Part shown: in pieces, positions 6,887 to 26,513 of the stretch
How the letters are laid out: every line of letters starts with the position of its first letter
Numbering within the stretch: the first letter of the stretch is position 1
Assembly (NCBI RefSeq): GCF_000192865.1
Contig: NC_015276.1
Coordinates: 1,994,364 to 2,026,363, forward strand
Source of the DNA: Marinomonas mediterranea MMB-1
GTDB taxonomy: Bacteria; Pseudomonadota; Gammaproteobacteria; Pseudomonadales; Marinomonadaceae
Length of the DNA: 32,000 nucleotides
Reading direction: 5' to 3'
Translations under genes and position numbers: made by a program
Notes under the pieces: generated by a model
Database searches by the model: none
What the model was told of the DNA's origin: nothing
The model's input: only the letters and a program-made list of their open reading frames with translations

Positions 6887-6940
6887 ATTTAAGTCTGTTA
6901 TTGGGTGTTTTTTGGCGTTCTAGGTAGTATGTTGCTACTC

Positions 6941-6968
6941 ATTTACTACAAAAATCTTTGTAGTAAAT
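6941..6968. promoter_or_regulatory. Perfect 12-bp inverted repeat between the dusA start and int
   Basis: ATTTACTACAAA-aatc-TTTGTAGTAAAT lies in the dusA/int intergenic region. It could be an operator, a recombinase or accessory-factor site, or a hairpin. Function is unknown. Confidence 0.3.
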
Positions 6969-7078
6969 TGCTTGTTGAGAAGCCTATGTATTGGTGTGTA
7001 ATTTTTTTACACCAGCAACGCATAACACCAGATTTTGTCGCTCTATTATGTCACATACTTACAAGGATGCTAACCAGC

Positions 7079-9420: not shown

Positions 9421-9681
9421 GATTCCTATCCTTTGGTTGTAAAGTGTTAGACAAATATACAACCAAATATTAGGTTTAGTCAACACTAAAAAGTTGTTAT
9501 GCAGATTTCTTATGTTGTTTGTGTAAATTTAAAAATTTCGTTTTTTATCTATTTAATGCTGAATGTATTGCCAAGACGCTTATAGTTAAGTTTTAATCTG
9601 TCTACAGTCATGGATTGGCTTTCTTTTCGACCTCCTTTCTTTGGCTATACTTTAAGAATTATCTATCTAGGTTTATCTACT

Positions 9682-10806: not shown

Positions 10807-11354
10807 TGCTGTACTTACTAGATGCGAATATTTACATTCAGGCACAAGGGTCTTATTACGATATGGATTTTTGTCCTGGATTTTGGGCATTCTTAGACAA
10901 GTCGTACAAAAGTGGCCAAATAACGTCAATTAAGCAAGTTCAAAAAGAGCTGAAACAACCGAAGCCAGCGAAAGCCAGAGCTGGTGAAACTCAAAAGCAA
11001 GAGGACAAACTTAGTCTTTGGGTTAAAGAACGCGATGAGCATTTCATTGATGATGAGGACGACTTAACACAAAATTGCTTTGTAGAAGTTGTGGAATATT
11101 TAATGGATCAACCGCACTTAAATGAGGCTAATAGAGACAGCTTCTTGGATGGCGCTGACCCTTGGATAATTTCTAAAGCAATGTCAATAAAGGAATTGGG
11201 TGGGGAAGTTGCTGTAGTCACTCACGAAAAGCTAGTTGCTGAAAACTCAACCAAAGTAAAAGTACCTAATGTATGTAAACATTTTGGTATTGAGGTAATT
11301 GACTGTTTTACCTTACTTCGTACGCTTGAAGCAAGGTTTAGCCTTAGCGCTTAA
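10806..11354 (+). CDS. DUF4411-like (PIN-like fold) protein, putative nuclease/toxin partner of the upstream gene
   Basis: MLYLLDANIYIQAQ..YYDMDFCPGFWAFL.., GADPWIISKA, VVTHEK and KVKVPNVCKHFGIEV match my recollection of DUF4411. Its start overlaps the upstream stop by 1 bp (TAATG), consistent with translational coupling. Confidence 0.65.
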   Translation: MLYLLDANIYIQAQGSYYDMDFCPGFWAFLDKSYKSGQITSIKQVQKELKQPKPAKARAGETQKQEDKLSLWVKERDEHFIDDEDDLTQNCFVEVVEYLMDQPHLNEANRDSFLDGADPWIISKAMSIKELGGEVAVVTHEKLVAENSTKVKVPNVCKHFGIEVIDCFTLLRTLEARFSLSA

Positions 11355-12001
11355 AGTTTCACTTTTGCTTCTTTTACAACACCGACTATACGGCAATTCC
11401 CGTTGATTTCAAAAGGGCGGTAGTTCGGGTTAAGTGGCTTTAGATACTTCTGCCCAGCATCAATATATAACTTTTTAAAAGTTACCTCATCTGTGCCGTC
11501 AAGTTTCGCCACAACAAGGCTTCCGTTGTCAGCCGGAATATCAGGATCGACTAGAATTAAATGTCCCTCTGGAATGCTAGTTCCAACGGGTGATGTCATG
11601 CTGTCGCCCACGACTTTTAGCCAAAAAGCGTTATCACTTGCAGAGAATGGGCTTTCTTCCCACTCAATATCGTCTGCCAATGAGCGATAATCAATAGCTT
11701 CGCTCCATGCACCAGCTTGAACATGGCTTACAACAGGCAGCTTTTTACTAGGAGCTTTAAACGGCGCTGCTTCAACATTGCTCTCGGCTTCACCTGAACT
11801 GACTCCCTCAATACCAAATTGCAACCACTCAGGCGTGCATTCAAGGGCTTTCGCAAGTGCTAATAGCTTTCTTGGATTGCTTGTCCGAGCATCTTCAATT
11901 TTCTGCAATGACTGTTGGCTTATTCCAACTTTATTAGCCAACTCTGTTTGAGTTAGTCCTAAGTGTATTCGTTGGGTTTTAACTCTTTCTGCGATGTTCA
12001 T
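11351..12001 (-). CDS. cI: CI-type prophage repressor (XRE HTH + S24 LexA-like autopeptidase)
   Basis: HTH is LTQTELANKVGISQQSLQKIE. There is a VQAGAW putative Ala-Gly cleavage region, a GDSM serine and an FKKL lysine. It is divergent from a cro-like gene. Confidence 0.9.
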   Translation of the reverse strand: MNIAERVKTQRIHLGLTQTELANKVGISQQSLQKIEDARTSNPRKLLALAKALECTPEWLQFGIEGVSSGEAESNVEAAPFKAPSKKLPVVSHVQAGAWSEAIDYRSLADDIEWEESPFSASDNAFWLKVVGDSMTSPVGTSIPEGHLILVDPDIPADNGSLVVAKLDGTDEVTFKKLYIDAGQKYLKPLNPNYRPFEINGNCRIVGVVKEAKVKL

Positions 12002-13508: not shown

Positions 13509-14443
13509 CAATTACAAAGGCAGTCGCCGATATTGGGCGTTTAGGTTTTACTGGTAATGTGACGCCTAAAGTGTGGTACAAACAAATCTTAACACCTTCT
13601 GGTAAGCCTGACTTTAAAGCGGTTGCGTTGCTGTCAGAGATTGTTTATTGGTATCGCCCAAGAGAGCTGAGAGACGAGCATACAGGTGCGGTAACAGGTT
13701 ATCAGAGGCGATTCAGCGATGACATGTTACACCGCTCTTACGCTTCGTTTTCTGAAGACTTTGGGATGACAAAGCGTGAAGCACAAGAAGCCATTAAAAG
13801 GTTGCGTGATGCTGGCTTGATTCGTTGTGAGTTGCGTAACAAACAAGTCAATGGAACTCAGCTATCCAATGTTTTATATATCGAACCTGTTGCTCAAAAA
13901 ATAGAAGAGATCACTTTTCCTAAAGCGGTTGAGACCGCCGATGTGACCCCTATCACAAATATTTGTGATACCCCCCAACACGACGATGTGACCCCTATCG
14001 CAAATAATTGTGATACCCCCCACAAAAATTTGGGACACCCCCCACAAATAATTGGGACACCTCCCACAAAAAAACGGGGGACGTATACAGAGATTAACTC
14101 AGAGATTAACTCAGAGACTACACATGAGATTGGTTTGCCCGTTCCGGCAAACCCCAAGCCGAAATCAAAACGCGCCTCGAACGTTCCCGATCAGTTCATC
14201 GTCGATCAGCGAATGCTCGACTGGCTCGTTCAAAACCAAATCACGACCGACTGGCAAAACGAAACCAAGAAATTTATGGATTACCACCAAGCGAACGGCT
14301 CGACGAAAAAAGATTGGGTCGCCGCGTGGCGGCTGTGGATGCGTAACTCCATGAAATTCTCCCAGCAGCGACCGACACCGCCCGCCACAGCGCGGGATCA
14401 AGTTCAGAACAGTCTGTCGAACATTCACGACACAAACTGGTAA
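13505..14443 (+). CDS. Replication initiation / replisome organiser protein (lambda O-like role)
   Basis: There is an N-terminal winged-helix-like region (MTKREAQEAIKRLRDAGLI). An iteron array is embedded mid-gene. It follows the cII/DUF2786 genes with an ATGA overlap. Confidence 0.7.
   Translation: MTITKAVADIGRLGFTGNVTPKVWYKQILTPSGKPDFKAVALLSEIVYWYRPRELRDEHTGAVTGYQRRFSDDMLHRSYASFSEDFGMTKREAQEAIKRLRDAGLIRCELRNKQVNGTQLSNVLYIEPVAQKIEEITFPKAVETADVTPITNICDTPQHDDVTPIANNCDTPHKNLGHPPQIIGTPPTKKRGTYTEINSEINSETTHEIGLPVPANPKPKSKRASNVPDQFIVDQRMLDWLVQNQITTDWQNETKKFMDYHQANGSTKKDWVAAWRLWMRNSMKFSQQRPTPPATARDQVQNSLSNIHDTNW
13940..14120 (+). repeat. Putative phage replication origin: four 22-bp iterons plus 12-bp direct repeats inside the replication gene
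   Basis: Iterons of form ACAAAWAWTTGKGAYACCYCCC occur at 13955-13976, 14000-14021, 14022-14043 and 14044-14065. The first two lie within 37-bp repeats starting GATGTGACCCCTATC at 13940 and 13985. CAGAGATTAACT appears twice (14088-14111) plus a partial third copy. Confidence 0.6.
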
Positions 14444-14452
14444 GGAGCGAAC

Positions 14453-14800
14453 ATGAGAGATTTATTCAACGAGTTTCCAGACACCGAAGCAGCCTACCTT
14501 GAAGTTGCGAACAATGCCCACGACCTAGCGCGCTGGAAACCAAGCCACGAGGTTTTGTACGAAGCGGGGCGCAGAGTTGGGTTCTCCAAAATTCGGCGAC
14601 GTGACACCGGAGCGGGGAAACGGGCGTTTGGCAAAATATACAAAGAAGTTTGCAAAGCCCATATGCGAGGAGAGCGCTTCCCTCGCTCCGTGATAGAACC
14701 GCAAAACACAGGCGAAAAACTCACTGCACGAGAAGTGCACGCCCGTCGTCAGATTGGCCGTGAACGAATTGGAGATATACGAGCGATATTAGAAGGATAA
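14453..14800 (+). CDS. Hypothetical phage protein (115 aa)
   Basis: The ORF has an AAGGAG SD upstream (14442-14447) and sits in the early operon. No domain recognised. Confidence 0.5.
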   Translation: MRDLFNEFPDTEAAYLEVANNAHDLARWKPSHEVLYEAGRRVGFSKIRRRDTGAGKRAFGKIYKEVCKAHMRGERFPRSVIEPQNTGEKLTAREVHARRQIGRERIGDIRAILEG

Positions 14801-14802
14801 CG

Positions 14803-14997
14803 ATGGAACACAAACCCCGAATCAGAGTAAAGCAACTAACACACGCCGTATCGCAACAGGATGTCGATACAACTTGGAAAGCGTTAATGAGCAAGGCACA
14901 CGAGGATGTTGTAAAAGCAAAGCTTCAATATCAGTGCCTAGCCGTCGCCCAACAATACGGATATAACCCATGCGTTGGAAAGACAAAGACAAACTAA
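14803..14997 (+). CDS. Hypothetical phage protein (64 aa)
   Basis: The ORF follows 2 bp after the previous stop. No domain recognised. Confidence 0.4.
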   Translation: MEHKPRIRVKQLTHAVSQQDVDTTWKALMSKAHEDVVKAKLQYQCLAVAQQYGYNPCVGKTKTN

Positions 14998-15497
14998 ACA
15001 CACTCGGTTCGCTCTCATGGCGGATCATAAACGACCACGTAACGTACCTCATATCGAGCACAGCCGACGCAGGATGGAAAGGGGTCGGCAACACAGGGCG
15101 CATTTGTGAATCCTTGATGTTTGGCGTTTCCCCGACCTTTAGTGGTGGCGGTGACAGCAACGCCGCAATGATCCGCCATATAAAAGCCCTGTCAGTAAAA
15201 GACAAAGGGTTCAGTTGGCTCTTTCGTGACCTGTCACGCATGCAAAAGCTTTGCTTATTTGCCGCAGTACTTGCAGAAGGGCGACGAACAATAAAAGGAC
15301 GACCGCTCTCAAACGCCCGTATAGCAGCAACCCTGCCCACCTTCGCCGCAGAACTCAGGCTAGGCCCAGCGCATACCGTGCCGTCTGAAAAGACGTTCGC
15401 GAACAACGTCTCAGAAGGTAGAAAGCGCTTTTTGGCAACGTTAGAAGAAGAGTTGCAATCAAGACTCTCAGAGGACGAGCTGAAAGCGATTGCATGA
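14970..15497 (+). CDS. Hypothetical protein (175 aa) coupled to the second recombinase gene
   Basis: The ORF ends in an ATGA overlap with the gene at 15494. The start is uncertain because it overlaps the previous ORF by 28 nt. A longer antisense ORF exists but is rejected. Confidence 0.45.
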   Translation: MRWKDKDKLNTLGSLSWRIINDHVTYLISSTADAGWKGVGNTGRICESLMFGVSPTFSGGGDSNAAMIRHIKALSVKDKGFSWLFRDLSRMQKLCLFAAVLAEGRRTIKGRPLSNARIAATLPTFAAELRLGPAHTVPSEKTFANNVSEGRKRFLATLEEELQSRLSEDELKAIA

Positions 15498-16660
15498 CCA
15501 AAGCTGTAACGAAGAAAATAACCGACGCATCGATTCGAGCGGCGTTTAAAAAAGAGGTGCGATACCTCTACGACTCCCGCCGAGTCGAATTCCACATCAA
15601 TGCCGCCCGCACGGGTGGCACCTTTTACGATGTCGTATACAAAGGGAAAAAGCGCCAACGTACCAAGCTTGCCAAATGGCCAGCGATCACCGCCGCGAGT
15701 TTGTTTCAAGAGTTACCCGCGATCCGTGCCAATGCGTTGGCCGATCGTAAAGCGCGCCTTGCCGTCTCTACGTATCATACAGCGGGAGAAGTGCTCATGT
15801 GGTTTATGCAACATATCGATGCCGACAAAACGTACTCCGTCTCATACGTTTCTACCGCGTCGAGCTACATTGGCAATCACTTGCTTGCTAAGCTCTCAGA
15901 GGCGACCCTAAGCGAGTTAAACAAAACACGCTTATACAGAACGCTCTACATGCCTATGCAGGCCGATTACGCGCTTTCAACGATAAAAGGTGTAATAAGT
16001 GTATTAAAAACCGCATTCGCCCGCGCATACGAACTAGGGTTGATTGCCAGAAACCCGATTGCAGACATCACCTTTAGCAGCTTCACCACCACACAGCCCG
16101 AAGCCAAGCCCGGCAAACTGAAACCTCACGACTTAAAGGCATTGATAAAAGCCATAAACGGCCAGCCGACACAAAAGCGCGTGTTCTTCATGACGCAACT
16201 GCTCCACGCAACCCGAATAGGGGAGACATCGCTCGCAGAGTGGAAGCAATTTTCCAACGCGCCATTGGAATGGAGCATTCCCGAAGAAAACACCAAGAAC
16301 AACACCGAGCACCGGCTCCCGATCACCCAACACGCTTACGACCTCATACACACACTGCCAAAGCGCGGCGACTATATCTTCTCTTCCAACGGCGACAAAC
16401 CCTATGCCATACGCACTTTAGAGCGTTGGTATCAAAGCCTAAGCGACGAAGTCGGCATCAAATTCACTAGCCACGACATACGCAAACTCGCCCGTGACTG
16501 CTGGCAAGACATGGGCATCGACTGGGTAATAGGGGAAATGCTACTCAACCACGAACGGGATGGGTTGGATAAACGGTACATGCACGCCCATTCCAGAGAA
16601 CAGATGAAAAGGGCGTTGGGAGAGTGGGGGGATGTATTTTGTGTATGTAGTGTTATTTAA
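15494..16660 (+). CDS. Second tyrosine recombinase, P4-like integrase family
   Basis: It has an N-terminal arm-binding-like region, an ATRIGE arginine, and SHDIRKLARD..LNHERDGLDKRYMH (HxxR..H..Y). The family differs from the dusA-adjacent integrase. Confidence 0.8.
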   Translation: MTKAVTKKITDASIRAAFKKEVRYLYDSRRVEFHINAARTGGTFYDVVYKGKKRQRTKLAKWPAITAASLFQELPAIRANALADRKARLAVSTYHTAGEVLMWFMQHIDADKTYSVSYVSTASSYIGNHLLAKLSEATLSELNKTRLYRTLYMPMQADYALSTIKGVISVLKTAFARAYELGLIARNPIADITFSSFTTTQPEAKPGKLKPHDLKALIKAINGQPTQKRVFFMTQLLHATRIGETSLAEWKQFSNAPLEWSIPEENTKNNTEHRLPITQHAYDLIHTLPKRGDYIFSSNGDKPYAIRTLERWYQSLSDEVGIKFTSHDIRKLARDCWQDMGIDWVIGEMLLNHERDGLDKRYMHAHSREQMKRALGEWGDVFCVCSVI

Positions 16661-16682
16661 TGTAATGACTTCTCTTTTGGGT

Positions 16683-16711
16683 TTGACAATCTAAAACAAT
16701 GAGCCAATATT
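16683..16711 (+). promoter_or_regulatory. Candidate sigma-70 promoter for the AT-rich island operon
   Basis: TTGACA (16683-16688), a 17-nt spacer, then AATATT (16706-16711). Located about 90 nt upstream of the first ATG of the 456-aa ORF. Confidence 0.35.
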
Positions 16712-16796
16712 AAACTAACAAAATGCATGGAAACAGACGTATTCTAACATTGTAGTGAGAGATATTGAATTTTGAGGTTCATTTATTCTTTTGGGG

Positions 16797-18161
16797 ATGT
16801 TCATGGATATTGTACTTTTTAATAGCTATGGTAATTTACTAGAAAATAATTATTTCTTTTTGTTTCTCCCAATAATTTTTACTATATTTGTACGTAGTTA
16901 TTTCAAACTTAATAACTCTCACTCTACAAATATTCTTCTTTTAAAATCAAGTGTCTTTCTATTACCAACTTTAATTTTTGTGACGCTGAACTTTCTTAAT
17001 ATGTACAATAAGGATAGTAGTGAAGTTAGTGAACTAAGTGAAGTTAGTGAACTAAGTGAAGTTAGTGAAGTCAGTGAAGTCAGTGAAGTCAGTGAAGTCA
17101 GTGAAGTTAGTAAATTTAGTAAAGCCTCAATTGCACTTGTTTTATCCGATCTTGACTTCGCAGGTATGTTACTATGCTACTTGTTATATGCTATGGCATC
17201 AGCATGGATTACTAATTGTTTATGTCGTAAATATAGTGTGTACAACTACAAGCGGAAGAATAAACATCAGAACATTTCGGAACCTTGCTTAACAAATTCA
17301 CAGAATGATGAGCAACCGTCCTGTTTTACTCCAAAGCAGGACGAGGTCTTTGGCTATCCCTTTGAGCCACTTACAGAGAATTCGCCTTCCTACTTTACCA
17401 GAAATCAAAAGGAGGAATGTCGCCTTATCCCAGAGCCAGACGACTTGCCTCGAAACTATTTACTGTCTCTTGAAAGTGCTCGATATACTTTCTTTAATTG
17501 CTCTAAGAGCAATGAGGAGCTAACTTTGTTCGAAAAAATAGATTTTAGTCTTTGTTGTTTTATTTCGCAGGCTAATAATATTAATGCCGATTACAGCGAA
17601 AAGTTTGCAAAACTTAAGAAAGGCTTTTGGTTAAATAGAGGTGAATTTGGCCGCAAACTAAACTGCCTTCACGCTGAACGTATTAGCTTGATAACCACGA
17701 GCTTTAATAAATGTTTACTACCACAGAATTCTACTTATCTGTCTGTGAGGTTGCGTATTGAAGATGATGGGGTTTATCGCTGTGTTTTCTCAACTCGACC
17801 AGACGGTCATAGGTATCCAGGCGATATTCCAATTGAGTCCGTAAACTTGATTGATGTGTCGCATCAGAAAAAAAAGATAATTTTGATGTCGGAATACCCT
17901 GATTATCATTTCAATACAGTGAATCGAAGCAATATGAAAAGGACTTGCTATTTAGATTATTTAGTCTACTCAATGGGAGGGGAAAGTAGTGATCATAGTG
18001 ATATCAGTTGTGCTATAGAAATTTTGGACGAAAAAGGCATTAATATTATTAAATATTTAATATCCTTAAAGAAGGTTTTTCCCGCGTTTTCACAAGCGCT
18101 TGACTGGGAATATATCCCTTTAAATAACTTTGAAACAGAGTCATTAAAAGAAAATAAATAG
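16797..18161 (+). CDS. Orphan multi-pass membrane protein with an SEV/SEL tandem repeat and ~300-aa C-terminal domain of unknown function
   Basis: A long ORF in very AT-rich DNA. Hydrophobic segments flank a (SEV/SEL)n loop. ATG candidates are at 16797 and 16803, the latter preceded by GGGGA. No family recognised. Confidence 0.6.
   Translation: MFMDIVLFNSYGNLLENNYFFLFLPIIFTIFVRSYFKLNNSHSTNILLLKSSVFLLPTLIFVTLNFLNMYNKDSSEVSELSEVSELSEVSEVSEVSEVSEVSEVSKFSKASIALVLSDLDFAGMLLCYLLYAMASAWITNCLCRKYSVYNYKRKNKHQNISEPCLTNSQNDEQPSCFTPKQDEVFGYPFEPLTENSPSYFTRNQKEECRLIPEPDDLPRNYLLSLESARYTFFNCSKSNEELTLFEKIDFSLCCFISQANNINADYSEKFAKLKKGFWLNRGEFGRKLNCLHAERISLITTSFNKCLLPQNSTYLSVRLRIEDDGVYRCVFSTRPDGHRYPGDIPIESVNLIDVSHQKKKIILMSEYPDYHFNTVNRSNMKRTCYLDYLVYSMGGESSDHSDISCAIEILDEKGINIIKYLISLKKVFPAFSQALDWEYIPLNNFETESLKENK
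17016..17123 (+). repeat. In-frame 9-bp tandem repeat (AGTGAAGTN/AGTGAACTA, ~10 units plus 2 degenerate)
   Basis: Read directly: agtgaagtt agtgaacta agtgaagtt agtgaacta agtgaagtt (agtgaagtc)x4 agtgaagtt agtaaattt agtaaa. It encodes SEVSELSEVSELSEVSEVSEVSEVSEVSEVSKFSK. Confidence 0.9.
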
Positions 18162-18211
18162 AGCTGTCTCAGTGCCTTTATAATATAATGGGGTAGAGAT
18201 AGGGGGAGTTT

Positions 18212-18394
18212 ATGAAAAGAAAAATTCATATTTGTCAATCACCATCATCTTTTAACTTTGAAGATAGTGAAATATTAAGTCCTAATAAAAAATTAAAGAA
18301 GAAAAAGTCTGTGTACGAGCTTTGTCAATATCAAGTTAACTATACAGAATCTGATTTTAACCTAGTTAAAATATTAAGGAATCGCTTTCAATAA
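18212..18394 (+). CDS. Small hypothetical protein (60 aa), lysine-rich
   Basis: A good SD (GGGGGAG) precedes the ATG at suitable spacing. Same strand as the 456-aa gene and 50 nt downstream of it. Confidence 0.4.
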   Translation: MKRKIHICQSPSSFNFEDSEILSPNKKLKKKKSVYELCQYQVNYTESDFNLVKILRNRFQ

Positions 18395-18522
18395 TATGTT
18401 TTTGTGATTGAGTGGGTCTTGATTATTCGCTAAATTTTCATCGTGAAGGCAAGAGGTGGGGTTGTTATTTAATATTACAGATATTAAATCTTAAGTGTAT
18501 TGATCGTGCCATCGTCCTGATC

Positions 18523-18727
18523 TACCATTACCTTGCACTGGCAAAATCCAGTGTCGGGATTAGTACCCGTTTAACCGTAGCGGCCTAGAACACGCTCCGC
18601 GTGTTTTTTTGTGGCCGGAATCCGCCTGTATGGTGGGTCGGTATCAGGCTAGCTTCGGCTAGGCCGTACCTTTGGGCGGTAGTCTCAACCTGTTATTTGA
18701 CCCACCACCTCTATTGAGATTGAGACC
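18523..18727 (+). repeat. Copy 1 of a ~205-bp direct repeat (promoter -10, leader hairpins, structured RNA unit, target motif)
   Basis: It aligns along its full length with 19486-19691, with scattered substitutions and small indels. A putative promoter is TTGATC-17-TACCAT (18500-18528). Hairpins are CACTGG/CCAGTG, CGGG-attagta-CCCG, and CACGC-tcc-GCGTG followed by T7 (18591-18610). Confidence 0.85.
18632..18709 (+). ncRNA. Candidate c4-like (immI-type) antisense RNA, allele 1
   Basis: A ~78-nt unit is closed by GGTGGGTC/GACCCACC and followed by ACC. It has an internal C(UUCG)G-capped hairpin. GTCTCAA (18682-18688) is complementary to TTGAGAC (18720-18726). Structure is conserved in copy 2 with compensatory changes. 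Confidence 0.45.
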
Positions 18728-18765
18728 TTAGTTTTGGGAATCACAGGCAAGTTGGACGATGTGGT

Positions 18766-19374
18766 CTAGTCTTGGTTATTATACAATGCTAAGATTTTTT
18801 TGGTTCCTTCATTTGCAAAATTCCTCAGCTCTCCATCCCAAGAACCACCATCTTTGGCAATTTTACATACACTTTTTTGAAGGCTAATTAGGTCATTAGG
18901 TTGATAGCCATTCAGTATCGTTTCTGTATAGAATGATTGCGTGAAAATTAAAGAAGATTTATATCTGGCCCAACTTTCATTAACTTTCTGAAGTTTTCTT
19001 TTAGTATCGTCTTCCTTTTTGCTATGCCCTTCATCATGGGTTCTATTTTGACGTATGTATTTTTTAAAGTGATATAGCTCGTCAAGATACACAAATAGCT
19101 CCGAAATATGCATTTCATAGCAAAGGCTAAGCTCTTTAATAGCGGCTGTTTTATTCTCTAAGAAATGCTGTTTTTTTGTTCTCTCTTCCCAAGTGCTGAA
19201 AGATTTATAAGCAAAAAATGCCGCGAAGGCGGTGGCGCATCCGGCAACAATGCCTGCGAAACTAGCAATGTGGGATAGAGCAATGTCTCCTCCGACAGCC
19301 CCTAGCATGTAGCAAAATAACCCAATAAAAAAACTGCACACCCACCAACTAGCATCCTTGAACATACTTTTCAC
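18766..19374 (-). CDS. Orphan membrane protein (202 aa; two N-terminal TM helices plus helical soluble domain)
   Basis: The ORF lies on the opposite strand between the two repeat copies. TM segments are WWVCSFFIGLFCYMLGAVGG and IASFAGIVAGCATAFAAFFAY. AAGGTG lies upstream of the ATG. No family recognised. Confidence 0.6.
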   Translation of the reverse strand: MKSMFKDASWWVCSFFIGLFCYMLGAVGGDIALSHIASFAGIVAGCATAFAAFFAYKSFSTWEERTKKQHFLENKTAAIKELSLCYEMHISELFVYLDELYHFKKYIRQNRTHDEGHSKKEDDTKRKLQKVNESWARYKSSLIFTQSFYTETILNGYQPNDLISLQKSVCKIAKDGGSWDGELRNFANEGTKKILALYNNQD

Positions 19375-19485
19375 ACCTTTTCTGACTGTTTTTGCATTGT
19401 AATCGTCGTATTAAATTTTATGGCGTTTAATATAGCACTTATTAAATTAAAGGGCTTAATGCTTGAAATGCATTCAAGCTAATAC

Positions 19486-19691
19486 TAACATTACCCTGCA
19501 CTGGCAAAATCCAGTGTCGGGATTAGTACCCCGTTTAACCGTAGCGGCCTAAGACACGCACCGCGTGTTTTTTTGTGGCCGAAATCCGCCTGTTATGGTG
19601 GGTCTATTTTGGGCTAGCTTCGGCTAGGCCGTTCCTACGGGCGGTAGTACTAACCTGATTTAGATCCACCACCTTAATAGAGATTAGTACC
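19486..19691 (+). repeat. Copy 2 of the ~205-bp direct repeat, immediately upstream of the KilA-N gene
   Basis: The putative promoter is TTGAAA-17-TAACAT (19463-19491). The hairpin series matches copy 1, including CACGC-acc-GCGTG followed by T7 (19555-19574). Confidence 0.85.
19597..19673 (+). ncRNA. Candidate c4-like (immI-type) antisense RNA, allele 2
   Basis: A 77-nt unit is closed by GGTGGGTCT/AGATCCACC, with one G-U pair tolerated only in plus-strand RNA. GTACTAA (19647-19653) is complementary to TTAGTAC at 19684-19690 and 19524-19530. GGCCGTTCCTACG (19627-19639) is complementary to CGTAGGAGGCC (19716-19726), which covers the downstream SD. Confidence 0.5.
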
Positions 19692-19727
19692 TCTTTAGGG
19701 TGGTCAAACTTCGACCGTAGGAGGCCA

Positions 19728-20306
19728 ATGATGGCTCACTTAATGATTGCTTCAAAAGACATCCGCACACTCGACGGATTGTATTCCCTTAATGATCTTC
19801 ATAAAGCGTCTGGCTCAGAATCGCGCCATTTACCCGCTCAGTTCCTAAGAAACCAACAAACAAAAGAATTAATAGCTGAAATTGATAACTATGCTAATTC
19901 GCATAGTTTAGCGGTAAATAAAAATCAGGGTAGAAGCGGTGGCACTTGGGTCTGCAAAGAACTGGTTTATGCTTACGCCATGTGGATCAGCCCGAAGTTC
20001 AATCTAGAAGTAATTCGCGCCTTCGATCAAGCCCAAACAGAACAACCGCCAGAACCCATTCAACAAAGCTTACCCGCCCCAATCCAAGACGACGAAAAAC
20101 TCAAACTCATTAACGACGTTGCCAAATCTTTAGGCATTACCGAAAGCATCGCCGTCGTCTCCGCCACCGACATCATGGCCATGATCCAAACCATCCGAAA
20201 CTACCAACAACAACTCGCCAGAATCCAAACCAACCCCGCATGGGTCGACCAAACCATCGAACGTGTGAAAACCGCAACAGGACGGGGTTTTGGTGATGGG
20301 ATATAA
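19728..20306 (+). CDS. KilA-N domain protein, antirepressor-like
   Basis: The N-terminal region LYSLNDLHKASG..PAQFLRNQQTKELI..GGTWVCKELVYAYAMWISPKF is a typical KilA-N domain. The AGGAGG SD at 19719-19724 favours the second ATG (19731) as the start. Confidence 0.8.
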   Translation: MMAHLMIASKDIRTLDGLYSLNDLHKASGSESRHLPAQFLRNQQTKELIAEIDNYANSHSLAVNKNQGRSGGTWVCKELVYAYAMWISPKFNLEVIRAFDQAQTEQPPEPIQQSLPAPIQDDEKLKLINDVAKSLGITESIAVVSATDIMAMIQTIRNYQQQLARIQTNPAWVDQTIERVKTATGRGFGDGI

Positions 20307-20344
20307 CACAACTTTTTCTTGAGCGAATGTGATAGTTATCGCTA

Positions 20345-20364
20345 TACTGTATAAATATACAGTA
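20345..20364. promoter_or_regulatory. LexA (SOS) box upstream of umuD
   Basis: TACTGTATAAATATACAGTA is a near-perfect match to the gammaproteobacterial CTGT-N8-ACAG consensus. It ends 1 nt before the umuD ORF. Confidence 0.85.
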
Positions 20365-20365
20365 T

Positions 20366-20821
20366 ATGGTGCTTGCTATGCGTGTGACTTACCTTGGGTC
20401 GGCGGAATCGTCGGCTTTTTTGTCTTCGAACAAGATGCAGATCCCGCTTTATGTCGAGTCTGTGTCTGCCGGGTTTCCGTCTCCAGCGCAGGATTTTGTT
20501 GAGCGTACGCTTGATTTAAACGAGCTGTGCATTCAACACCCCAGTGCAACGTTTTTTGTACGTGCTCAGGGGGATTCGATGATAGAAGCGGGGATTCATT
20601 GCGGGGATGTTCTGGTGGTCGATCGCTCGCTAACGTCTAAACATGGCGACATCGTTATTGCGTGTGTGCATGGGGAAATGACTGTTAAGGTATTGGAGTT
20701 AATGCCTGCTGTCGCGTTGCGACCACGTAATAAAGCGTACCCTGTTATCCCTATCTCGGAAGAAAGCGGTTTAGAGGTGTTTGGTGTTGTCACTGGTGTC
20801 GTGCGTAAGATAGAACGATGA
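20366..20821 (+). CDS. umuD: UmuD-like S24 peptidase (translesion polymerase V accessory subunit)
   Basis: [54 protein letters not shown] is collinear with E. coli UmuD. The start could alternatively be the Met at 20378. Confidence 0.9.
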
Positions 20822-22089
20822 GTACGGTCTTTGCGTTGGTTGATTGCAATAACTTCTATGCAAGCTGTGAAAAGCTGTTCCGCCCAGATCTAAAATACAA
20901 ACCCGTTGCGGTGTTGTCGAATAATGACGGCTGCATTGTCGCGCGCTCAAAAGAGGTAAAAGCGCTCGGTATTAAAATGGGCGTGCCCGTCTTTAAGATT
21001 CGAGACGAGATCGAAAAGCACGGTATTGTCTGTTTCTCGTCGAATTATGCGCTTTATGCGGATCTATCAAATAGGGTAATGACGCTATTAGAAGAGGAGG
21101 CGCCCCGCGTTGAGGTGTATTCGATTGATGAGGCGTTTATGGATTTATCAGGCATTGAAACCGCGATAGATTACGAAGCCTTTGCTCGTCGTGTAAAACA
21201 TAAGATTGATACATGGACAGGCATTACGGTTGGTATCGGCATTGCGCCCACTAAAACACTTGCCAAGCTTGCTAACCATGCCGCCAAAAAGTACACCGCG
21301 ACGGGTGGCGTGGTGGATTTAATGAATGCAGAGCGACAAAGAAAACTCATGGCATTGGTGGAGGTTGGAGACGTGTGGGGTGTCGGTCGTCGAATCTCTG
21401 AGAAGTTGAGAGCGCTAGGCATTTACACTGCGTTGGATCTCGCAGACAGCGACCCTAAATCTTTACGAAGTGAGTTCTCCGTTGTGTTGGAGCGCACGAT
21501 CCGTGAATTGAATGGCGTGTCGTGTCTTGAGCTTGAAAGCGTGGCCCCCACTAAAAAGCAGATTGTATGCAGTCGCTCGTTTGGGAACCGAATAACGGAT
21601 AAAGCCGAGCTACGAGAAGCCATTGCCAAATACACGACCCGCGCGGCGGAAAAGCTAAGAGGGGAGAAGCGGCTCGCAAGAGTGGTACAGGTGTTTATTC
21701 GGACAGGTGTGTTTAACCCGAATGATCCTCGATATTCCAATTCGTTAAGCGTTGAACTTCCAAACCCGACGGACGATACGAGAGACCTGCTAGAAGCCAC
21801 CGATGTTCTCTTTCGGCGAATTTTCAAAGCGGGGTTTCGTTACGCAAAAGCAGGCGTAATGCTTAGCGACTTTTACGAACACGGCACCTTTCAGGCTGAT
21901 TTATTTCGATCTAACGCTCAACGCGACAATGCAAAACATCTAATGGAAGTGGTTGACCGAATCAACCACAGCGGCCTTGGTAACGTCTTCTTCGCCGCCC
22001 AAGGCACGACACCACAATGGTCAATGAAACGCGACCATCTATCACCGGCTTATACGACTAGGTGGGAGGACTTGCCTAGGGTGAGGTGA
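20818..22089 (+). CDS. umuC: UmuC-like Y-family DNA polymerase
   Basis: [34 protein letters not shown] and [15 protein letters not shown] are present. It has an ATGA overlap with umuD. Confidence 0.93.
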
Positions 22090-22203
22090 GGGGGTGAAAT
22101 TTTTCTAAATGTCGCTGCTAATCGTAAGATGTTGAGTGATTTTTAGTCTAATCTTAAATTGCGGTTTGATCGTTTTTCTTTTTTTATTTGCGGAGGGATT
22201 CAG

Positions 22204-22464
22204 ATGGAATTAATAATCGTTTTTATTGTAGTCGTTGTAATTATTAATGCTTTAACTAATTCAGGGTCAGCGAAATCTAACAGTACCCATTCAAAAAATT
22301 CTGGCAGCGCTCAAAAAAAGCCGATTGCGTGTATGAATTGTGCTGGTACTGGGAAGGTTTGGAAAACATATACAGAGCCTGAAAATAACTTATCAGGGGC
22401 AAGGATGGTTCAAAAGCGGCGTGAAGAGGCTTGTATGGTATGTTTCGGAAAAGGGTATCATTGA
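22204..22464 (+). CDS. Small membrane-anchored protein with DnaJ-type zinc-ribbon motifs (86 aa)
   Basis: GGAGGG SD lies 6 nt before the ATG at 22204. The N-terminus is hydrophobic (MELIIVFIVVVVIINAL). Motifs CMNCAGTGK and CMVCFGKG (CxxCxGxG x2) follow. A strong terminator lies downstream. Confidence 0.55.
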   Translation: MELIIVFIVVVVIINALTNSGSAKSNSTHSKNSGSAQKKPIACMNCAGTGKVWKTYTEPENNLSGARMVQKRREEACMVCFGKGYH

Positions 22465-22482
22465 AGTATTAGTAAAATCTAG

Positions 22483-22504
22483 ACCACCTTCGGGTGGTTT
22501 TTTT
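22483..22504 (+). terminator. Rho-independent terminator after the zinc-ribbon gene
   Basis: ACCACC-ttcg-GGTGGT followed by a T7 run. Confidence 0.8.
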
Positions 22505-22746
22505 ATGCCTAAACTAAACATATCCATCAAAAAAGATATGTGTTTTGCCGCCAACATGCCGCCATTGAGTTGTGAAACCGCTTTGCTCTAGCCCAATAAA
22601 CACAAGGCTTTATATACAAAATGTCGCTTTCATAAGAAGAGAACGACATTTTAAAATCTCGCGCGTAACGCTTGCGACCTCGGGAATTAGACGTTAAAGT
22701 TTCCTCAAGCTGTGAAGATTGTATCTGAGCGGCACGCAAATCATTT

Positions 22747-22775
22747 AAGCCCAGCCAATGTGTTGGGCTTTTTCA
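22747..22775 (+). terminator. Rho-independent terminator 1 upstream of the lysis genes
   Basis: AAGCCCA-(10 nt)-TGGGCTT followed by TTTTC. Confidence 0.6.
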
Positions 22776-22781
22776 TTTCTA

Positions 22782-22805
22782 GCCTCGCGAATTGCGGGGC
22801 TTTTT
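22782..22805 (+). terminator. Rho-independent terminator 2 upstream of the lysis genes
   Basis: GCCTCGC-gaatt-GCGGGGC (one G-U pair) followed by TTTTT. Located 24 nt before the holin ATG. Confidence 0.6.
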
Positions 22806-22828
22806 CGTTTCTGGACTGGACGCACTGT

Positions 22829-23122
22829 ATGAAGTACCTACCGGATGAGCTTCTTCAAACGGCAGTATTTGTGGTGGTCGGTGTGCTGGGTGGCGCTGTG
22901 AAATACCTCCGTGATTTTCAGCATAAAGCTAAAAAATTCTCATTAATTCATATGCTTATCGCCGTGTTTACAGGTGGTTTCTTAGGGATGTTGACGTATT
23001 TTTTATGTACTTCCATGAATATGGGAGGCCCACTTACTGGCTTTATGGCAGGTGTCGCAGGTCTGATGGGCGACGAAGCAATCAAACTATTTATTAACCG
23101 TTTTAAACGAGGCCTCTCATGA
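22829..23122 (+). CDS. Holin-like protein (97 aa, about three TM segments)
   Basis: I prefer the ATG at 22829 because the track's GTG at 22712 would read through two terminators. The hydrophobic segments and charged C-terminus (KLFINRFKRGLS) fit a holin. It overlaps the endolysin start. Confidence 0.6.
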   Translation: MKYLPDELLQTAVFVVVGVLGGAVKYLRDFQHKAKKFSLIHMLIAVFTGGFLGMLTYFLCTSMNMGGPLTGFMAGVAGLMGDEAIKLFINRFKRGLS

Positions 23123-23637
23123 GCTTAGACCTTGCGCAGTTACGTGACCTTGTGGTCGTTCCAACGCTTTCAAACCTAGGAATGTACAGCCTAGCAGCGG
23201 AGCAGCTTGTAATGGGGACGATTGCTCAAGAGTCGCGTGGAACGTACTTAAAGCAACTCGGAAAAGGCCCCGCACTGGGTTTGATCCAGATGGAACCCGC
23301 CACACACGCCGATATTTGGCGTAATTTCGTACGTTATACAAAGCGATTAACGGTAGATCTACGAGCATTGCTCTCAGCAGAAGCCGACGATGTGTTTGAA
23401 GTGTGTGGTGTTCCTGATGACACAGAGTTAATTACCAACCTCAAGTATGCGGTCGCAATGTGCCGTGTTCATTACTGGCGTAAACCTCAAACATTGCCAG
23501 AAGCCAATAATATCAAGGCTTTAGGTGAATACTGGAAAGATCATTACAACACGTTTAAAGGCGCGGGGACTGTTGACGAGTTCATTAACCACTTCCCGTA
23601 TGAGTTATATGGAATCGATAAGGAGCAATACGTATGA
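23119..23637 (+). CDS. Endolysin, lytic transglycosylase (SLT-like)
   Basis: GTIAQESRGTYLKQLGKGPALGLIQMEPATH fits an SLT catalytic E-S motif region. Positioned after the holin. Confidence 0.7.
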   Translation: MSLDLAQLRDLVVVPTLSNLGMYSLAAEQLVMGTIAQESRGTYLKQLGKGPALGLIQMEPATHADIWRNFVRYTKRLTVDLRALLSAEADDVFEVCGVPDDTELITNLKYAVAMCRVHYWRKPQTLPEANNIKALGEYWKDHYNTFKGAGTVDEFINHFPYELYGIDKEQYV

Positions 23638-23801
23638 GCACAATTTTATTAGCTATTTTGAAGACATTACTCACTAAATTGGTTACGGAAAAGGTGTTAA
23701 TTTCCGTATTTCTACATGTGGCCGAATTCCTGACAAAAAAGACCACGAATACTCTCGACGATAAGCTAGTCGAGGAAGTAAAAAAGGCATTGAATGCATA
23801 G
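23634..23801 (+). CDS. Small lysis-cassette protein (55 aa; not in the ORF track), possible lysis accessory/spanin-like
   Basis: My own translation from the ATG at 23634 (ATGA overlap with the endolysin stop) gives MSTILLAILKTLLTKLVTEKVLISVFLHVAEFLTKKTTNTLDDKLVEEVKKALNA. The N-terminus is hydrophobic. The call rests on position only. Confidence 0.3.
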   Translation: MSTILLAILKTLLTKLVTEKVLISVFLHVAEFLTKKTTNTLDDKLVEEVKKALNA

Positions 23802-23982
23802 TTTTGGTGCATTTTTGCTCCAAAAAGGTCTGGGACCCTGGCGTTCTGGAATGTACGCGAGGCGGCAGCCGTCCCTGCGTTCTTTGCGTATTTTTCGCAA
23901 AAAAAGGGATCGTCAGCACTACCTTTCTTAACTATCTGAATTAAAAGACTTTCATACTGACGGTGCTGCCTAAAAATCTACT

Positions 23983-24462
23983 ATGAGTTCTAAATATGTT
24001 TTTAATATTACTGAGCTTGCAGAAGCGTTTAGTTTGCATCGTGACACGGTAAGGAAACGATTGAGGAAAGCTGAGGTATCTGCTCATACAGTGAAGGGAA
24101 ATACTGCTTACTATCATATGAATGTGGCAGCTCCGGCCATCATTTCTGAACTGATCGTAAATGAAAGTGTTATTAATCCCGATACGATGACACCGGGCGA
24201 ACGGAAAGCTTGGTTTGACTCTGAAAATGCCAGAGTCAATTTTGAGATAAATTGTGGTGAGTTGGTTCCTGCAGATGAAGTGGCGAGAGGGTACGCCGAG
24301 TTTGCAAAAGCAATTGTAAACCCACTGGACAGCCTACCTGATTTATTGGAACGAAAAGCGGGTCTCAATGCGGATCAAGCTGAGATTGTTCAAAAGCAAG
24401 TCGATAGCATTAGAGAAAATATGTATCTGTCTGTGGTTAATAACGGTGGTGATCTCGAATAG
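23983..24462 (+). CDS. Terminase small subunit (Nu1-like, N-terminal HTH)
   Basis: ITELAEAFSLHRDTVRKRLRKA is an HTH. It lies immediately upstream of the GpA-type large terminase and overlaps it. Confidence 0.7.
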   Translation: MSSKYVFNITELAEAFSLHRDTVRKRLRKAEVSAHTVKGNTAYYHMNVAAPAIISELIVNESVINPDTMTPGERKAWFDSENARVNFEINCGELVPADEVARGYAEFAKAIVNPLDSLPDLLERKAGLNADQAEIVQKQVDSIRENMYLSVVNNGGDLE

Positions 24463-26513
24463 TGTATGCATCCGCAAATAGTTTAAAACGAGACACGGCG
24501 CTTTTAATTAAACCACCGACTAGGTTAGCAGTATCGGAAGCCGTCGCTCAGTACGTCAAGACAAAAACGCCATCAGGGAATTGGGATTACTGGGACATTG
24601 AAACCGCGCCCTATATGGTCGAGCCCATGGATATTATCTCTTCTCGGAAAAAGAAGGGGCTGATATTTGTAGGTCCAGCCCGATCAGGTAAAACCCAAGC
24701 ACTTATCGATGGTGGTGTAGGTTATGGGGTGGCTGTTGACCCTAGCGACATGTTGGTCGCTCAGATGTCGCAAGTCAAAGCGGCAGAGTTTGGTAAGAAG
24801 CGAATTACTCCCATGTTGGAGAATTCCCCAATACTCGCCGACTGTCTAAGCCCTCGCACTCACGACAATAACGTGACAGAAAAGATTTTTAAGGCGGGTA
24901 ATTATCTTCGTATTGGTCATCCTTCGAAAACCATTCTAGCGTCGTCTGATTATCGTTTTGTTTTCTTAACAGATTACGATCGATGGCCGCTTGATGTAGG
25001 CGGTGAAGGTTCTGGTTGGGGCTTGGCGTTTAAACGTATCCAAACGTATCAGAGTTTGGGAATGGCTGTGTGTGAAAGCAGCCCCGGTTATGAGGTGATG
25101 CCAGATGGAGATAAGAACCTTCAACATCACGAAGCGCCAGCCTCACTCGGGATTTTGTCTCTATACAATACGGGTGACAGAAGGCAGCTCTATTGGGCTT
25201 GCCTTGATTGTGGTGAATTTTTTCCTGCAAAGTTTGAGTATCTAAGGTTTGATGAAAATGAAACCAATATTCGAAAGGCGGCAAGAAACGTAACGGCGTT
25301 TTGTCCGCATTGTGGCTCCAATGATATTAAGCCTCAACACAAGTTTGAACTGATACAAAAGGCGCGTTGGGTTCCTGGTGGTTGTGAGATTTCGCGCGAT
25401 GGTGAGATCACCGGTGAAATGATCGATTCGCCTTTAGCGTCTTTCTGGATGGAAGGGCCAGCGGCAAACTTTCAGACGTGGGAAGAGTTGGTTTATCTCC
25501 ATCTATCCGCAAAAAGAGACTATGACAAAACGGGCAGTGAAAAGCAGTTAAGAACCACGGTCAATGTGGATCAGGGTAGGCCATATACACCGATGAGCCT
25601 TCAGGCGAAAGGTAAAGCTGAAGAACTGAAAGAACGCGTTGTCCCCCTTGAGCAATTGTTAGTTCCTAAATGGGTTCGCTTCTTAACGGCGCAGATAGAC
25701 GTGCAAAACGGTAAGAAGAGTCGTTTCTCTGTGATGGTCTTAGGTTGGGGGGAAGGCCTGCAACACACGGTTATTGATCGATTTGAAATCGTGAAAAGTA
25801 ATCGTGTTGAAGACGGTCAAGAAAAGCGCGTTGACCCTGCAAAATATTCGGAAGATTGGGATCTGATTACGGATCGCGTAATTAACCAGTCTTATCAGAT
25901 TGAAGACCATCCTGACTTGCGAATGCCTATAACTATTACGCTTTGTGATAGTGGTGGTGAAGATGGTGTAACGGATAATGCCTACGAGTACTATCGCCGC
26001 CTAAAAAAGCTAAAAATGCATGAAAAGTTTTGGTTACTAAAAGGTGACGGTAAGAAGCTTGAGTCTGATTATATTCGAGTGAGTTACCCGGATAACTCAA
26101 AGAAGAAGCATAGAAAAGCCAGAGCACGGGGTGATATCCCCTTGCTTCTACTAAATTCCAACCGCTTTAAAGATATCGTCAATAACTCCTCAATAGGTCG
26201 AGATGAGCCGGGCGCGAAATACTGTTATTTCCCCGACTGGTTGCCTGAGAGCTTTTATGACGAGCTGACATATGAAATCCGCGGTGTAGATGGCCGCTGG
26301 ACCAAACCTGGCAAGAAGGCGAACGAAGCATTTGACCAATTCTATTATGGATGGGCGGCTATTTATCAGTTGAGAGCACATACCGTTGACTGGGAATTAC
26401 CACCTGTTTACGCAAAACCTATAGAAGAAAATCCTTTCATAATACGGCCCAATCAGCTTGAAAAAGCGCATAAAACCAAGCGAGAGCGCAGAAGTAGGAT
26501 TCAGATAGCATGA
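24462..26513 (+). CDS. Terminase large subunit, lambda GpA family
   Basis: 683 aa with a Walker A motif (VGPARSGKT). A zinc-ribbon-like CLDCG..CPHCG is present. Size and layout are typical of GpA. GTG start at 24462. Confidence 0.9.
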   Translation: MYASANSLKRDTALLIKPPTRLAVSEAVAQYVKTKTPSGNWDYWDIETAPYMVEPMDIISSRKKKGLIFVGPARSGKTQALIDGGVGYGVAVDPSDMLVAQMSQVKAAEFGKKRITPMLENSPILADCLSPRTHDNNVTEKIFKAGNYLRIGHPSKTILASSDYRFVFLTDYDRWPLDVGGEGSGWGLAFKRIQTYQSLGMAVCESSPGYEVMPDGDKNLQHHEAPASLGILSLYNTGDRRQLYWACLDCGEFFPAKFEYLRFDENETNIRKAARNVTAFCPHCGSNDIKPQHKFELIQKARWVPGGCEISRDGEITGEMIDSPLASFWMEGPAANFQTWEELVYLHLSAKRDYDKTGSEKQLRTTVNVDQGRPYTPMSLQAKGKAEELKERVVPLEQLLVPKWVRFLTAQIDVQNGKKSRFSVMVLGWGEGLQHTVIDRFEIVKSNRVEDGQEKRVDPAKYSEDWDLITDRVINQSYQIEDHPDLRMPITITLCDSGGEDGVTDNAYEYYRRLKKLKMHEKFWLLKGDGKKLESDYIRVSYPDNSKKKHRKARARGDIPLLLLNSNRFKDIVNNSSIGRDEPGAKYCYFPDWLPESFYDELTYEIRGVDGRWTKPGKKANEAFDQFYYGWAAIYQLRAHTVDWELPPVYAKPIEENPFIIRPNQLEKAHKTKRERRSRIQIA

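Follow-up and report, generated by a model that had tools for sequence, protein, structure and literature searches.

Tandem c4/IsrK-type RNA modules, one of them orphaned, upstream of a presumed antirepressor gene in a Marinomonas mediterranea prophage

Described c4 and IsrK systems and the Marinomonas modules

The 32,000-nucleotide (nt) window analyzed here, from Marinomonas mediterranea MMB-1 (NC_015276.1, positions 1,994,364 to 2,026,363), contains a prophage in which two diverged copies of an RNA module, copy 1 and copy 2, lie upstream of a gene encoding a KilA-N domain protein. In the immI region of phages P1 and P7, the c4 RNA pairs with the a2/b2 sites and translation is thereby blocked, and the c4 of P1 is released from its precursor by RNase P. 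This antisense RNA, together with the a1/b1 and a2/b2 sites, is said to control icd-ant, in a scheme that reportedly goes back to Citron & Schuster in 1990. The P1 record is annotated in the order promoter P1c4, a1, b1, the 77-nt c4, a2, b2, and icd-ant. In the supplement of PMC2864571, which cites Citron & Schuster 1990, a1/b1 are proposed to be competitors. A second system, isrK-orf45-anrP of Gifsy-1, has been described in other terms: IsrK arises by partial termination, and when supplied in trans, it raises the translation of the Gifsy-1 antirepressor about 140-fold (PMC4825925, Hershko-Shalev et al. 2016). The c4 repression framework is not used in that paper, in the text of which neither "phage P1" nor "RNase P" was found, and a 2025 review (PMC12197685) enters IsrK and c4 as unrelated RNAs.

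The whole window was scanned against Rfam at curated thresholds, and all coordinates below are window positions. Four matches were obtained, all on the + strand, in the order isrK then C4, twice. The isrK matches (RF01394; gathering score, 50 bits) scored 58.9 bits in copy 1 and 66.2 bits in copy 2, with expectation (E) values of 3e-12 and 2.3e-10 for the pair, and the C4 matches (RF01695; gathering score, 45 bits) scored 54.7 and 56.2 bits, with E values of 1.9e-08 and 4.3e-08; the c4 of P1 itself scores 68.8 bits. A covariance model of our own (R1), built from 44 C4 sequences and run over 73 loci, gave 71.7 bits for the C4 of copy 1 and 77.4 bits for that of copy 2. The c4-a1b1 family (RF03163; gathering score, 46.7 bits) was matched with relaxed thresholds at 31.5 bits in copy 1 and 38.9 bits in copy 2, both below threshold, and this model and isrK overlap on the same two leader hairpins in both copies. 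On the P1 leader, c4-a1b1 scores 51 bits and isrK matches weakly (35 bits; E = 5e-6). Both copies are a known kind of RNA switch, detected as such by curated Rfam models, which bears out the P1/P7 immI-like c4 identity that a preliminary description, made from the sequence alone, had proposed for both. The hairpin with a T7 run that this description had left unexplained is the IsrK terminator, and the hairpins before it form the IsrK/c4-a1b1 leader.

The two copies (18523-18727 and 19486-19691) are direct repeats, diverged and in the same orientation as had been described, with 182 of 209 aligned columns identical (87%); a repeat finder divides the pair into a leader portion with 94-96% identity and a C4 portion with 83% identity. 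In each, a putative promoter is followed by an IsrK-type leader, made up of two hairpins and a GC hairpin with T7, and then by C4. The -35 and -10 hexamers are spaced by 17 nt in both copies, namely, TTGATC (18500-18505) and TACCAT (18523-18528) in the putative promoter of copy 1 (18500..18528, + strand) and TTGAAA (19463-19468) and TAACAT (19486-19491) in that of copy 2 (19463..19491, + strand). In nearly all of 46 homologous modules, a TTGAC-like -35 element and a TAnnnT -10 element stand at a fixed distance from the RNA start, and the two promoter-like pairs picked out earlier occupy this conserved position. A generic promoter scan, which performed at chance level, listed the copy 2 site and placed the copy 1 site under its cut-off, and the IsrK terminators were absent from the list of the generic promoter/terminator scan. 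The leader of copy 1, with hairpins 1 and 2 and a terminator of GC hairpin plus U7, spans 18535..18609 (+ strand), and that of copy 2 spans 19498..19573 (+ strand), with its terminator hairpin and U7 run at 19554-19574. The C4 RNAs lie on the + strand at 18626..18712 and 19591..19676. Their closing stem is formed by GGTGGGTC/GACCCACC, copy 2 having GATCCACC with a G-U pair, and a C(UUCG)G hairpin (P2, with a UUCG loop) is present in both copies. In the C4 sequence, a tRNA-like closing stem can be seen, with ACC after it.

The pairing sites are named here after the P1 annotation: the heptamer pair is a'/a2, the leader-loop site is a1, and the pair involving the Shine-Dalgarno sequence is b'/b2, with b' in the loop of the third C4 hairpin (P3) and b1 directly after leader hairpin 2. 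The Marinomonas modules agree with P1/P7 immI in their promoter, their leader of two hairpins, the second of which has a1 in its loop and b1 behind it, and their terminator-like hairpin; in a C4 of about 77 to 78 nt followed by a2 and then by b2 over the ribosome-binding site; in the C4 fold and the positions of a' and b' within it; and in a specificity that changes by compensatory substitutions in guide and target. They differ from P1 in that P1 has an icd leader open reading frame (ORF), whereas the Marinomonas module has none and b2 lies on the Shine-Dalgarno sequence of the regulated gene itself. In addition, the regulated protein here is a 192-amino-acid (aa) KilA-N protein unrelated to P1 Ant1, the prophage is a siphovirus-like element integrated at dusA with a CI/LexA-type repressor rather than a plasmid prophage with C1, and two tandem modules are present, one of them orphaned.

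The architecture of isrK, C4, and an antirepressor-like gene is shared with Gifsy-1 (NC_010392, 34131-34316, minus strand; locus L108), where an isrK match of 79 bits is directly followed by a C4 homolog of 69 bits and then by such a gene. Also shared are an IsrK-family leader with a terminator, capable of giving both a short small RNA and a read-through mRNA, and the pairing of the middle IsrK hairpin with the downstream C4 region. In contrast, a translated orf45 overlaps the C4 region in Gifsy-1 and is coupled to anrP, with no such frame here, and Hfq binding and trans-activation are known there only. The "orf45" region of Gifsy-1 and the ~80-nt processed species of the IsrK paper are probably c4. 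The sar RNA of phage P22 is transcribed from the opposite strand as a genuine cis-antisense RNA. It likewise is a small phage RNA that pairs at the ribosome-binding site of the antirepressor gene, ant, and acts there on its translation, which is blocked (review PMC12197685). C4 differs from it in lying on the same strand, upstream of its target, and in having two short guides, and it shows no homology to sar.

Guide and target sites in copy 2 and related modules

In copy 2 (19463-19727), a complete module, the a1, a', and a2 sites and the b1, b', and b2 sites are all mutually cognate (a of the UAC type and b CCUACGG), and all lie on the + strand. The a1 site, UUAGUAC (19523-19529), is in the loop of leader hairpin 2, and a', GUACUAA (19647-19653), is the exact complement of a2, UUAGUAC (19684..19690). 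The b1 site consists of CCGUAG plus CGGCCUA (19539-19551), b' is CCUACGG in the C4 P3 loop (19634-19640), and b2 is CCGUAGGAGG (19715..19724), which overlaps the KilA-N Shine-Dalgarno sequence and spans AGGAGG, four bases before the ATG at 19728. GGCCGTTCCTACG at 19627-19639 can pair with CGTAGGAGGCC at 19716-19726. The motifs listed in the preliminary description are all present where it placed them, except that the leader TTAGTAC of copy 2 is at 19523-19529 and not at 19524-19530. The C4 of copy 2 has a predicted fold energy of -37.5 kcal/mol and is located 52 nt upstream of the KilA-N gene (19728..20306, + strand; Pfam KilA-N, E = 6.8e-23), the product of which falls into PHROG transcription-regulator and anti-repressor families and is presumed to be the antirepressor. 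An icd- or orf45-like coupled leader ORF was sought before this gene, and none ends at or overlaps its start; a block would therefore act directly on the KilA-N ribosome-binding site. About 40 relatives likewise have b2 lying over the AGGAGG that precedes the KilA-N gene. The sequence evidence thus fits the earlier proposal that copy 2 controls the antirepressor gene. The nearest relative of copy 2 is the module of Marinomonas sp. SBI8L (L065; 90.9%), and an identical KilA-N protein is encoded on the NCBI chromosome CP047696.1.

Relatives were gathered by means of the KilA-N protein and of a leader DNA pattern in which the leader hairpins were kept invariant and the loop was left free. Loci retrieved with this pattern numbered 19 in viral sequences and 36 in genomes, and Marinomonas, Vibrio, Motilimonas, Endozoicomonas, and Pontibacterium were represented; a blastn search of the region against 50,697 phage records gave no match. 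Covariation was assessed in 46 distinct modules from Marinomonas and Vibrio prophages, with 500 shuffles and slid controls for significance. The a1 site is the exact complement of a' in all but one of the 46 modules, and a2 equals a1 in nearly all complete modules. Pairing between a1 and a' amounts to 99.4% and between a' and a2 to 96.6%, with both-sided changes at 5/7 pairs in each case. None of the 500 shuffles matched the observed pairing, which drops to 23-45% in the slid controls. The heptamers vary together across 11 a' alleles, which supports the guide/target reading given to them earlier. The C4 closing stem (P1) is 98.6% paired, with five pairs showing both-sided changes and many G-U pairs, a richness that fits only a + strand RNA, and the P3 stem is 99.5% paired. 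For P2, pairing is 47.6% in alignment A3, in which its columns are misaligned across genera, and both-sided changes occur at 5/5 pairs. The RNAalifold consensus of 44 sequences gives a three-way C4 fold.

The second site covaries as well; the 42 modules compared contain 33 P3-loop variants, and a and b occur in 37 combinations. The P3 loop has a mean exact complement of 6.9 nt in the b1/b2 regions of its own module, compared with 3.9-4.0 nt in non-cognate combinations. The a and b sites assort independently: CUC is combined with CCUACGG in L092 and with CCUUUGG in L069, and UGC is combined with CCUACGG in L090 and with CCUUUGG in L094.

An alternative structure was also observed around a2. The 3' strand of the C4 closing stem could pair with a conserved segment just after a2 (19663-19710 in the window), for example, as CCACC...GGUGG, with counterparts such as CCGUCGC...GCGACGG in L045 and CCGCCUCC...GGAGGCGG in L071, as well as in L047 and in P1 (L107, ~510-545). 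This hairpin, judged by eye only, would present a2 in its loop and would be mutually exclusive with the C4 fold. A column-based covariation count failed for it because the pairing register differs between genera.

From these elements and the described systems, the following mechanism may be proposed. A constitutive sigma-70 promoter would start an RNA whose first ~75 nt are the IsrK-type leader ending in an intrinsic terminator; transcripts ending there would give the small IsrK RNA, and read-through transcripts would contain the ~78-nt C4 RNA, which in P1 is excised by RNase P. The C4 RNA would display two guides, namely, its third hairpin loop (b') and a single-stranded heptamer (a'), which would bind a2 just past C4 and b2 over the ribosome-binding site and turn off antirepressor translation, and with the antirepressor off, the CI-type repressor would hold the prophage silent. 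The a1 and b1 sites of the leader would be decoys for the same guides, so that IsrK would titrate C4 and free the antirepressor gene. Specificity would reside in the a heptamer and a b site of roughly 7-8 nt, which would vary jointly from phage to phage. We infer transcription, processing, and repression in the Marinomonas modules from homology and covariation.

Copy 1 and its counterparts in other prophages

Copy 1 (18500-18736) is, on sequence comparison, the residue of a second module with another allele (a of the CUC type and b CCUUUGGG, TW1-like). Its best match is the module of Marinomonas sp. TW1 (L069), with 92.6% identity over 18521-18736 and a nearly identical C4 and a2. Past a2, the TW1 locus runs on into the a2-hairpin strand, CCCAAAGGAGG (b2), and a KilA-N gene, the 5' end of which is the same as that of the gene in the window. 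The preliminary description had read copy 1 as a second specificity allele that has lost its gene, and TW1 supplies the intact allele with its Shine-Dalgarno target and KilA-N gene. In copy 1, homology to intact modules ends at ~18736, about 10 nt past a2 (right breakpoint, 18736..18739, from the alignment with L069), and a reverse-oriented ORF, ORF202, comes next; the 3' strand of the a2 hairpin, the b2/Shine-Dalgarno site, and the gene are therefore missing. Half of a downstream target is left, a2 being present and b2 and the gene absent. The piece lost at the breakpoint includes the partner strand of the alternative hairpin that would present a2.

The pairing sites show that copy 1 is a chimera. 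Its a' is GUCUCAA (18682-18688), with the exact complement UUGAGAC as its own a2 target (18720..18726), and its b' in the P3 loop is CCUUUGGG (18669-18676), all on the + strand. The leader sites have the specificity of copy 2: a1 in the hairpin-2 loop is UUAGUAC (18560..18566, + strand), which matches the C4 of copy 2 and not that of copy 1, and CCGUAG plus CGGCCUAG (18575..18588, + strand) makes up b1. The a1/b1 patch equals that of copy 2 apart from one missing C, and TW1-type sequence is found in the terminator loop and in C4. The resulting mismatch between a1 and a' is the sole case among the 46 modules. The copy 2 specificity of this patch most likely arose by short-patch recombination between the copies.

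CCAAAGG is absent from the + strand of the window, so that the C4 of copy 1 (C4-1) lacks a full target in it. A second full target of C4-1 was sought in the window and none was found; TTGAGAC recurs only at 13929 and 29820, in both cases within a gene and without a nearby b site, a number that chance predicts. Duplex predictions were limited to the guide and target sites, since whole-RNA duplexfold had produced long meaningless duplexes. The guides of C4-2 (the C4 of copy 2) are predicted to pair with leader 1 at -39.6 kcal/mol, with leader 2 at -37.2 kcal/mol, and with their own a2/b2 region at -32.4 kcal/mol. Those of C4-1 reach -18.6 kcal/mol on their own downstream region, -40.4 kcal/mol on the TW1 leader, and -30.9 kcal/mol on the TW1 a2/b2 region. 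The orphan probably still produces a second C4 species, whose only possible action would be in trans on TW1-type relatives.

The sister strain CP047695.1, also named Marinomonas mediterranea, carries a prophage (L100) with the same layout and the same breakpoint in copy 1. Compared with 13000-24600 of the window, it is 99-100% identical outside a few divergent patches, which lie at 18500-18700 in copy 1 (84-93% identity), at 19000-19100 within ORF202 (82% identity), and at 19800-20000 in the middle of the KilA-N antirepressor gene (62-68% identity), and it has an extra ORF after ant. A swap of a repressor-recognition segment may account for the divergent middle of the KilA-N gene. Between the two strains, copy 2 shows 99-100% identity, and copy 1 has a different patch of about 150 nt. 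In the L100 orphan, a1 is UUGCAAC, b1 is CAACAG, b' is UCUUUGGG, and a' is GUUGCAA, and a2 is still UUGAGAC; the remaining differences in its C4 preserve pairing through G-U pairs. The specificity region of the orphan has been exchanged in one of the two strains.

Other arrangements were found among the relatives. Single isrK-C4 modules lie immediately upstream of the KilA-N gene in L002-L004 and L007, which were scanned with Rfam. Two complete hetero-specific cassettes, 952 nt apart, occur in an IMG/VR sequence (3300003177_000099; L045, 180-1433), and three complete tandem cassettes occur in Vibrio sp. 99-8-1 (L089, 2000-5400); in both loci the cassettes are self-cognate and differ from one another in a/b specificity, and every cassette has a small paralogous gene of its own behind it. 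Two modules lie several kilobases apart in L058, L061, and L092, and truncated modules are present in L054, L064, L102, and L104. Homologs of ORF202 lie divergently upstream of isrK-C4(-KilA-N) modules in L109-L111, and in L102 and L104 the ORF202 homolog is flanked on its other side by a second isrK-like copy with a decayed C4 part, C4 being absent from L102 and truncated in L104 (19.8 bits in the R1 search). The isrK remnant of L102 sits immediately upstream of umuDC. In a more distant relative, L006 (5876-5962, + strand), an sRNA-Xcc1 match (RF02221, 66.7 bits) is found just upstream of the KilA-N homolog in place of C4 and may be an analogous or related regulator.

We put the probability at roughly 0.85 that both copies are c4/IsrK immunity modules of the P1 immI type, with copy 2 the working regulator and copy 1 an orphan remnant. 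Under the simplest history, a module with the TW1 allele would have been resident first, a unit of ORF202, module 2, and ant would have joined just after its a2 (about 10 nt past it, which would have removed the b2/Shine-Dalgarno site and the gene), and short-patch recombination between the modules would have been the last step. Several points weigh against this reading. The promoters, termination, read-through, and processing are assigned by homology; the -35 hexamer of copy 1, TTGATC, is weaker than the TTGAC of most relatives; and the KilA-N protein is presumed to be an antirepressor from its domain and PHROG annotation only, a homology to P1 Ant1 having been rejected (E = 0.063). Furthermore, the promoter, leader, terminator, C4 fold, and a2 of copy 1 are intact in both strains, and the differences between the strains cluster in its specificity sites or preserve pairing, neither of which is predicted for a scar and which together could reflect selection on the orphan. 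Left-hand isrK copies are also kept beside distant ORF202 homologs. Even so, the odds lean slightly toward copy 1 being an expressed remnant, or scar, without a selected role.

It is possible, though doubtful, that the orphan is instead kept as a trans-acting second immunity allele, with C4-1 silencing the antirepressor of TW1-type relatives that superinfect the host or reside in it alongside. Without it, such an antirepressor would evade C4-2 and could inactivate the repressor of the resident prophage, and the host would tentatively be likened to a P1 lysogen carrying the P7 c4. Both C4-1 guides (a' GUCUCAA and b' CCUUUGGG) match the targets of a real allele before the closely related TW1 KilA-N gene, at the -30.9 compared with -18.6 kcal/mol given above, and the promoter, leader, terminator, and C4 fold remain intact in both strains. 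In L100, the orphan guides have been swapped for a pair (a' GUUGCAA and b' UCUUUGGG) similar to the existing allele of L094, and the divergent patches include both the orphan specificity region and the antirepressor middle, a pattern that resembles an arms race over immunity. Hetero-specific c4 cassettes do exist in arrays of two (L045) or three (L089). However, a complete orphan is found in one lineage only, that of two near-identical prophages, and the C4 part of the left copy has decayed in L102 and L104. Neutral gene conversion from intact donors could yield patch swaps with the fold kept, and the L100 orphan, in which a' no longer fits its own a2 and a1/b1 is half cognate, looks more like shuffling than design.

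An action of copy 1 through its leader, in which the a1/b1 sites of its IsrK would add to the decoy pool that titrates C4-2 and so tune antirepressor release, is improbable. The near identity of its a1/b1 patch to that of copy 2 would allow it, C4-2 being predicted to pair with leader 1 as well as with leader 2, and the roughly 140-fold effect of Gifsy-1 IsrK in trans (PMC4825925) and the persistence of isrK-only left-hand copies in L102 and L104 are in its favor. However, the a1 (UUGCAAC) and b1 (CAACAG) sites of the L100 orphan do not match C4-2, so that the decoy cross-talk is not conserved even between near-identical prophages, and the isrK copies of L102 and L104, with C4 absent or truncated, have no intact local partner. 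It was further considered that the copies are not regulatory RNAs at all but attL/attR-like duplicated ends of a cassette inserted by a recombinase, such as the tyrosine recombinase at 15494-16660. Direct repeats around a single reverse-oriented gene and a second integrase 2 kilobases upstream, conserved in relatives beside variable cargo, would suit such an event. Duplications at att sites are short and identical, whereas these repeats are 205 nt long and 83-96% identical, with differences that are allele specific and compensatory. Each repeat is, moreover, a complete member of both RNA families, the integrase is located beyond the segment that the repeats bound, and relatives with the same integrase carry a single module. 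On account of the excessive length and divergence of the repeats and of their allele-specific differences, this explanation was rejected as highly improbable.

Prophage surroundings and implications

The window contains a siphovirus-like prophage with a CI/LexA-type repressor, adjoining dusA. Its gene content comprises an integrase, the CI/LexA-like repressor, a CII-like gene, a second tyrosine recombinase, the two modules, and the KilA-N gene, together with umuDC-like, LydA-type holin, terminase, portal, protease, and capsid genes. The repressor gene (11351..12001, - strand) encodes a helix-turn-helix domain and an S24 peptidase domain according to Pfam, and its product would be the target of the antirepressor. 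The first integrase (6905-8221) adjoins dusA (5840-6886, minus strand), which matches the described class of integrases that target dusA. Next to the repressor gene, at 9610-11354 (+ strand), a helix-turn-helix protein with an ImmA/IrrE metallopeptidase domain (PADLOC RmrA-like, E = 1e-22) is followed by a DUF4411 protein, and the two may form a toxin-antitoxin or defense pair. The umuD- and umuC-like genes (20366-22089, + strand) come directly after the antirepressor gene.

The second tyrosine recombinase (15494-16660, + strand) lies in the middle of the prophage and overlaps the stop codon of the preceding ORF. It is conserved in L002-L004 and L100, directly upstream of cargo that differs in every phage, and in L002-L004 this variable cargo lies between the recombinase and the module. 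The cargo includes a toxin-antitoxin-like pair, an ATPase-like ORF of 496 aa, and two paired ORFs of 363 and 256 aa. In the window, ORF456 (16791-18161, + strand) contains about 12 copies of a 9-nt repeat at 17018-17124 encoding SEV/SEL triplets. Its counterpart in the sister strain is 491 aa long, indicating that its length is polymorphic, and no family was found for it in Pfam, PHROGs, NCBIfam, or PADLOC.

ORF202 (18766..19374, - strand), between the modules, encodes a predicted membrane protein for which Pfam, PHROG, NCBIfam, and PADLOC gave no family. The prediction places membrane helices at the N terminus and a helical portion at the C terminus, and the ORF is a recurrent divergent neighbor of isrK promoters. 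Read-through from copy 1 would run antisense to ORF202. Weak similarity links ORF202 with a reverse ORF of L003 (pairwise E = 4e-4).

Taken alone, the module is an annotation of a P1-type c4/IsrK switch, and its wider value lies in the allele diversity, the chimeric orphan, and the unity of IsrK and c4. IsrK and c4 are two halves of one module, the IsrK of Gifsy-1 being the a1/b1 leader of a c4 module, which joins two literatures that have been treated separately. With 11 alleles of the heptamer and 33 variants of the second site, in 37 combinations and with a match at three places for each, the marine modules amount to a natural mutagenesis table that backs the two-site guide model of c4 well beyond P1 and P7. 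The chimeric orphan and its patch-swapped twin provide a simple test system for whether extra c4 alleles widen immunity or are recombination debris at a module boundary. A more speculative prospect, to which we give the lesser chance, is that, in marine gammaproteobacteria, temperate phages accumulate and exchange c4 specificities that serve as an RNA immunity repertoire, with the orphan C4 as a trans guard against heteroimmune relatives. If so, guide sites and leader decoys would be exchanged by short-patch recombination, in an arms race that would also drive the variable middle of the antirepressor.

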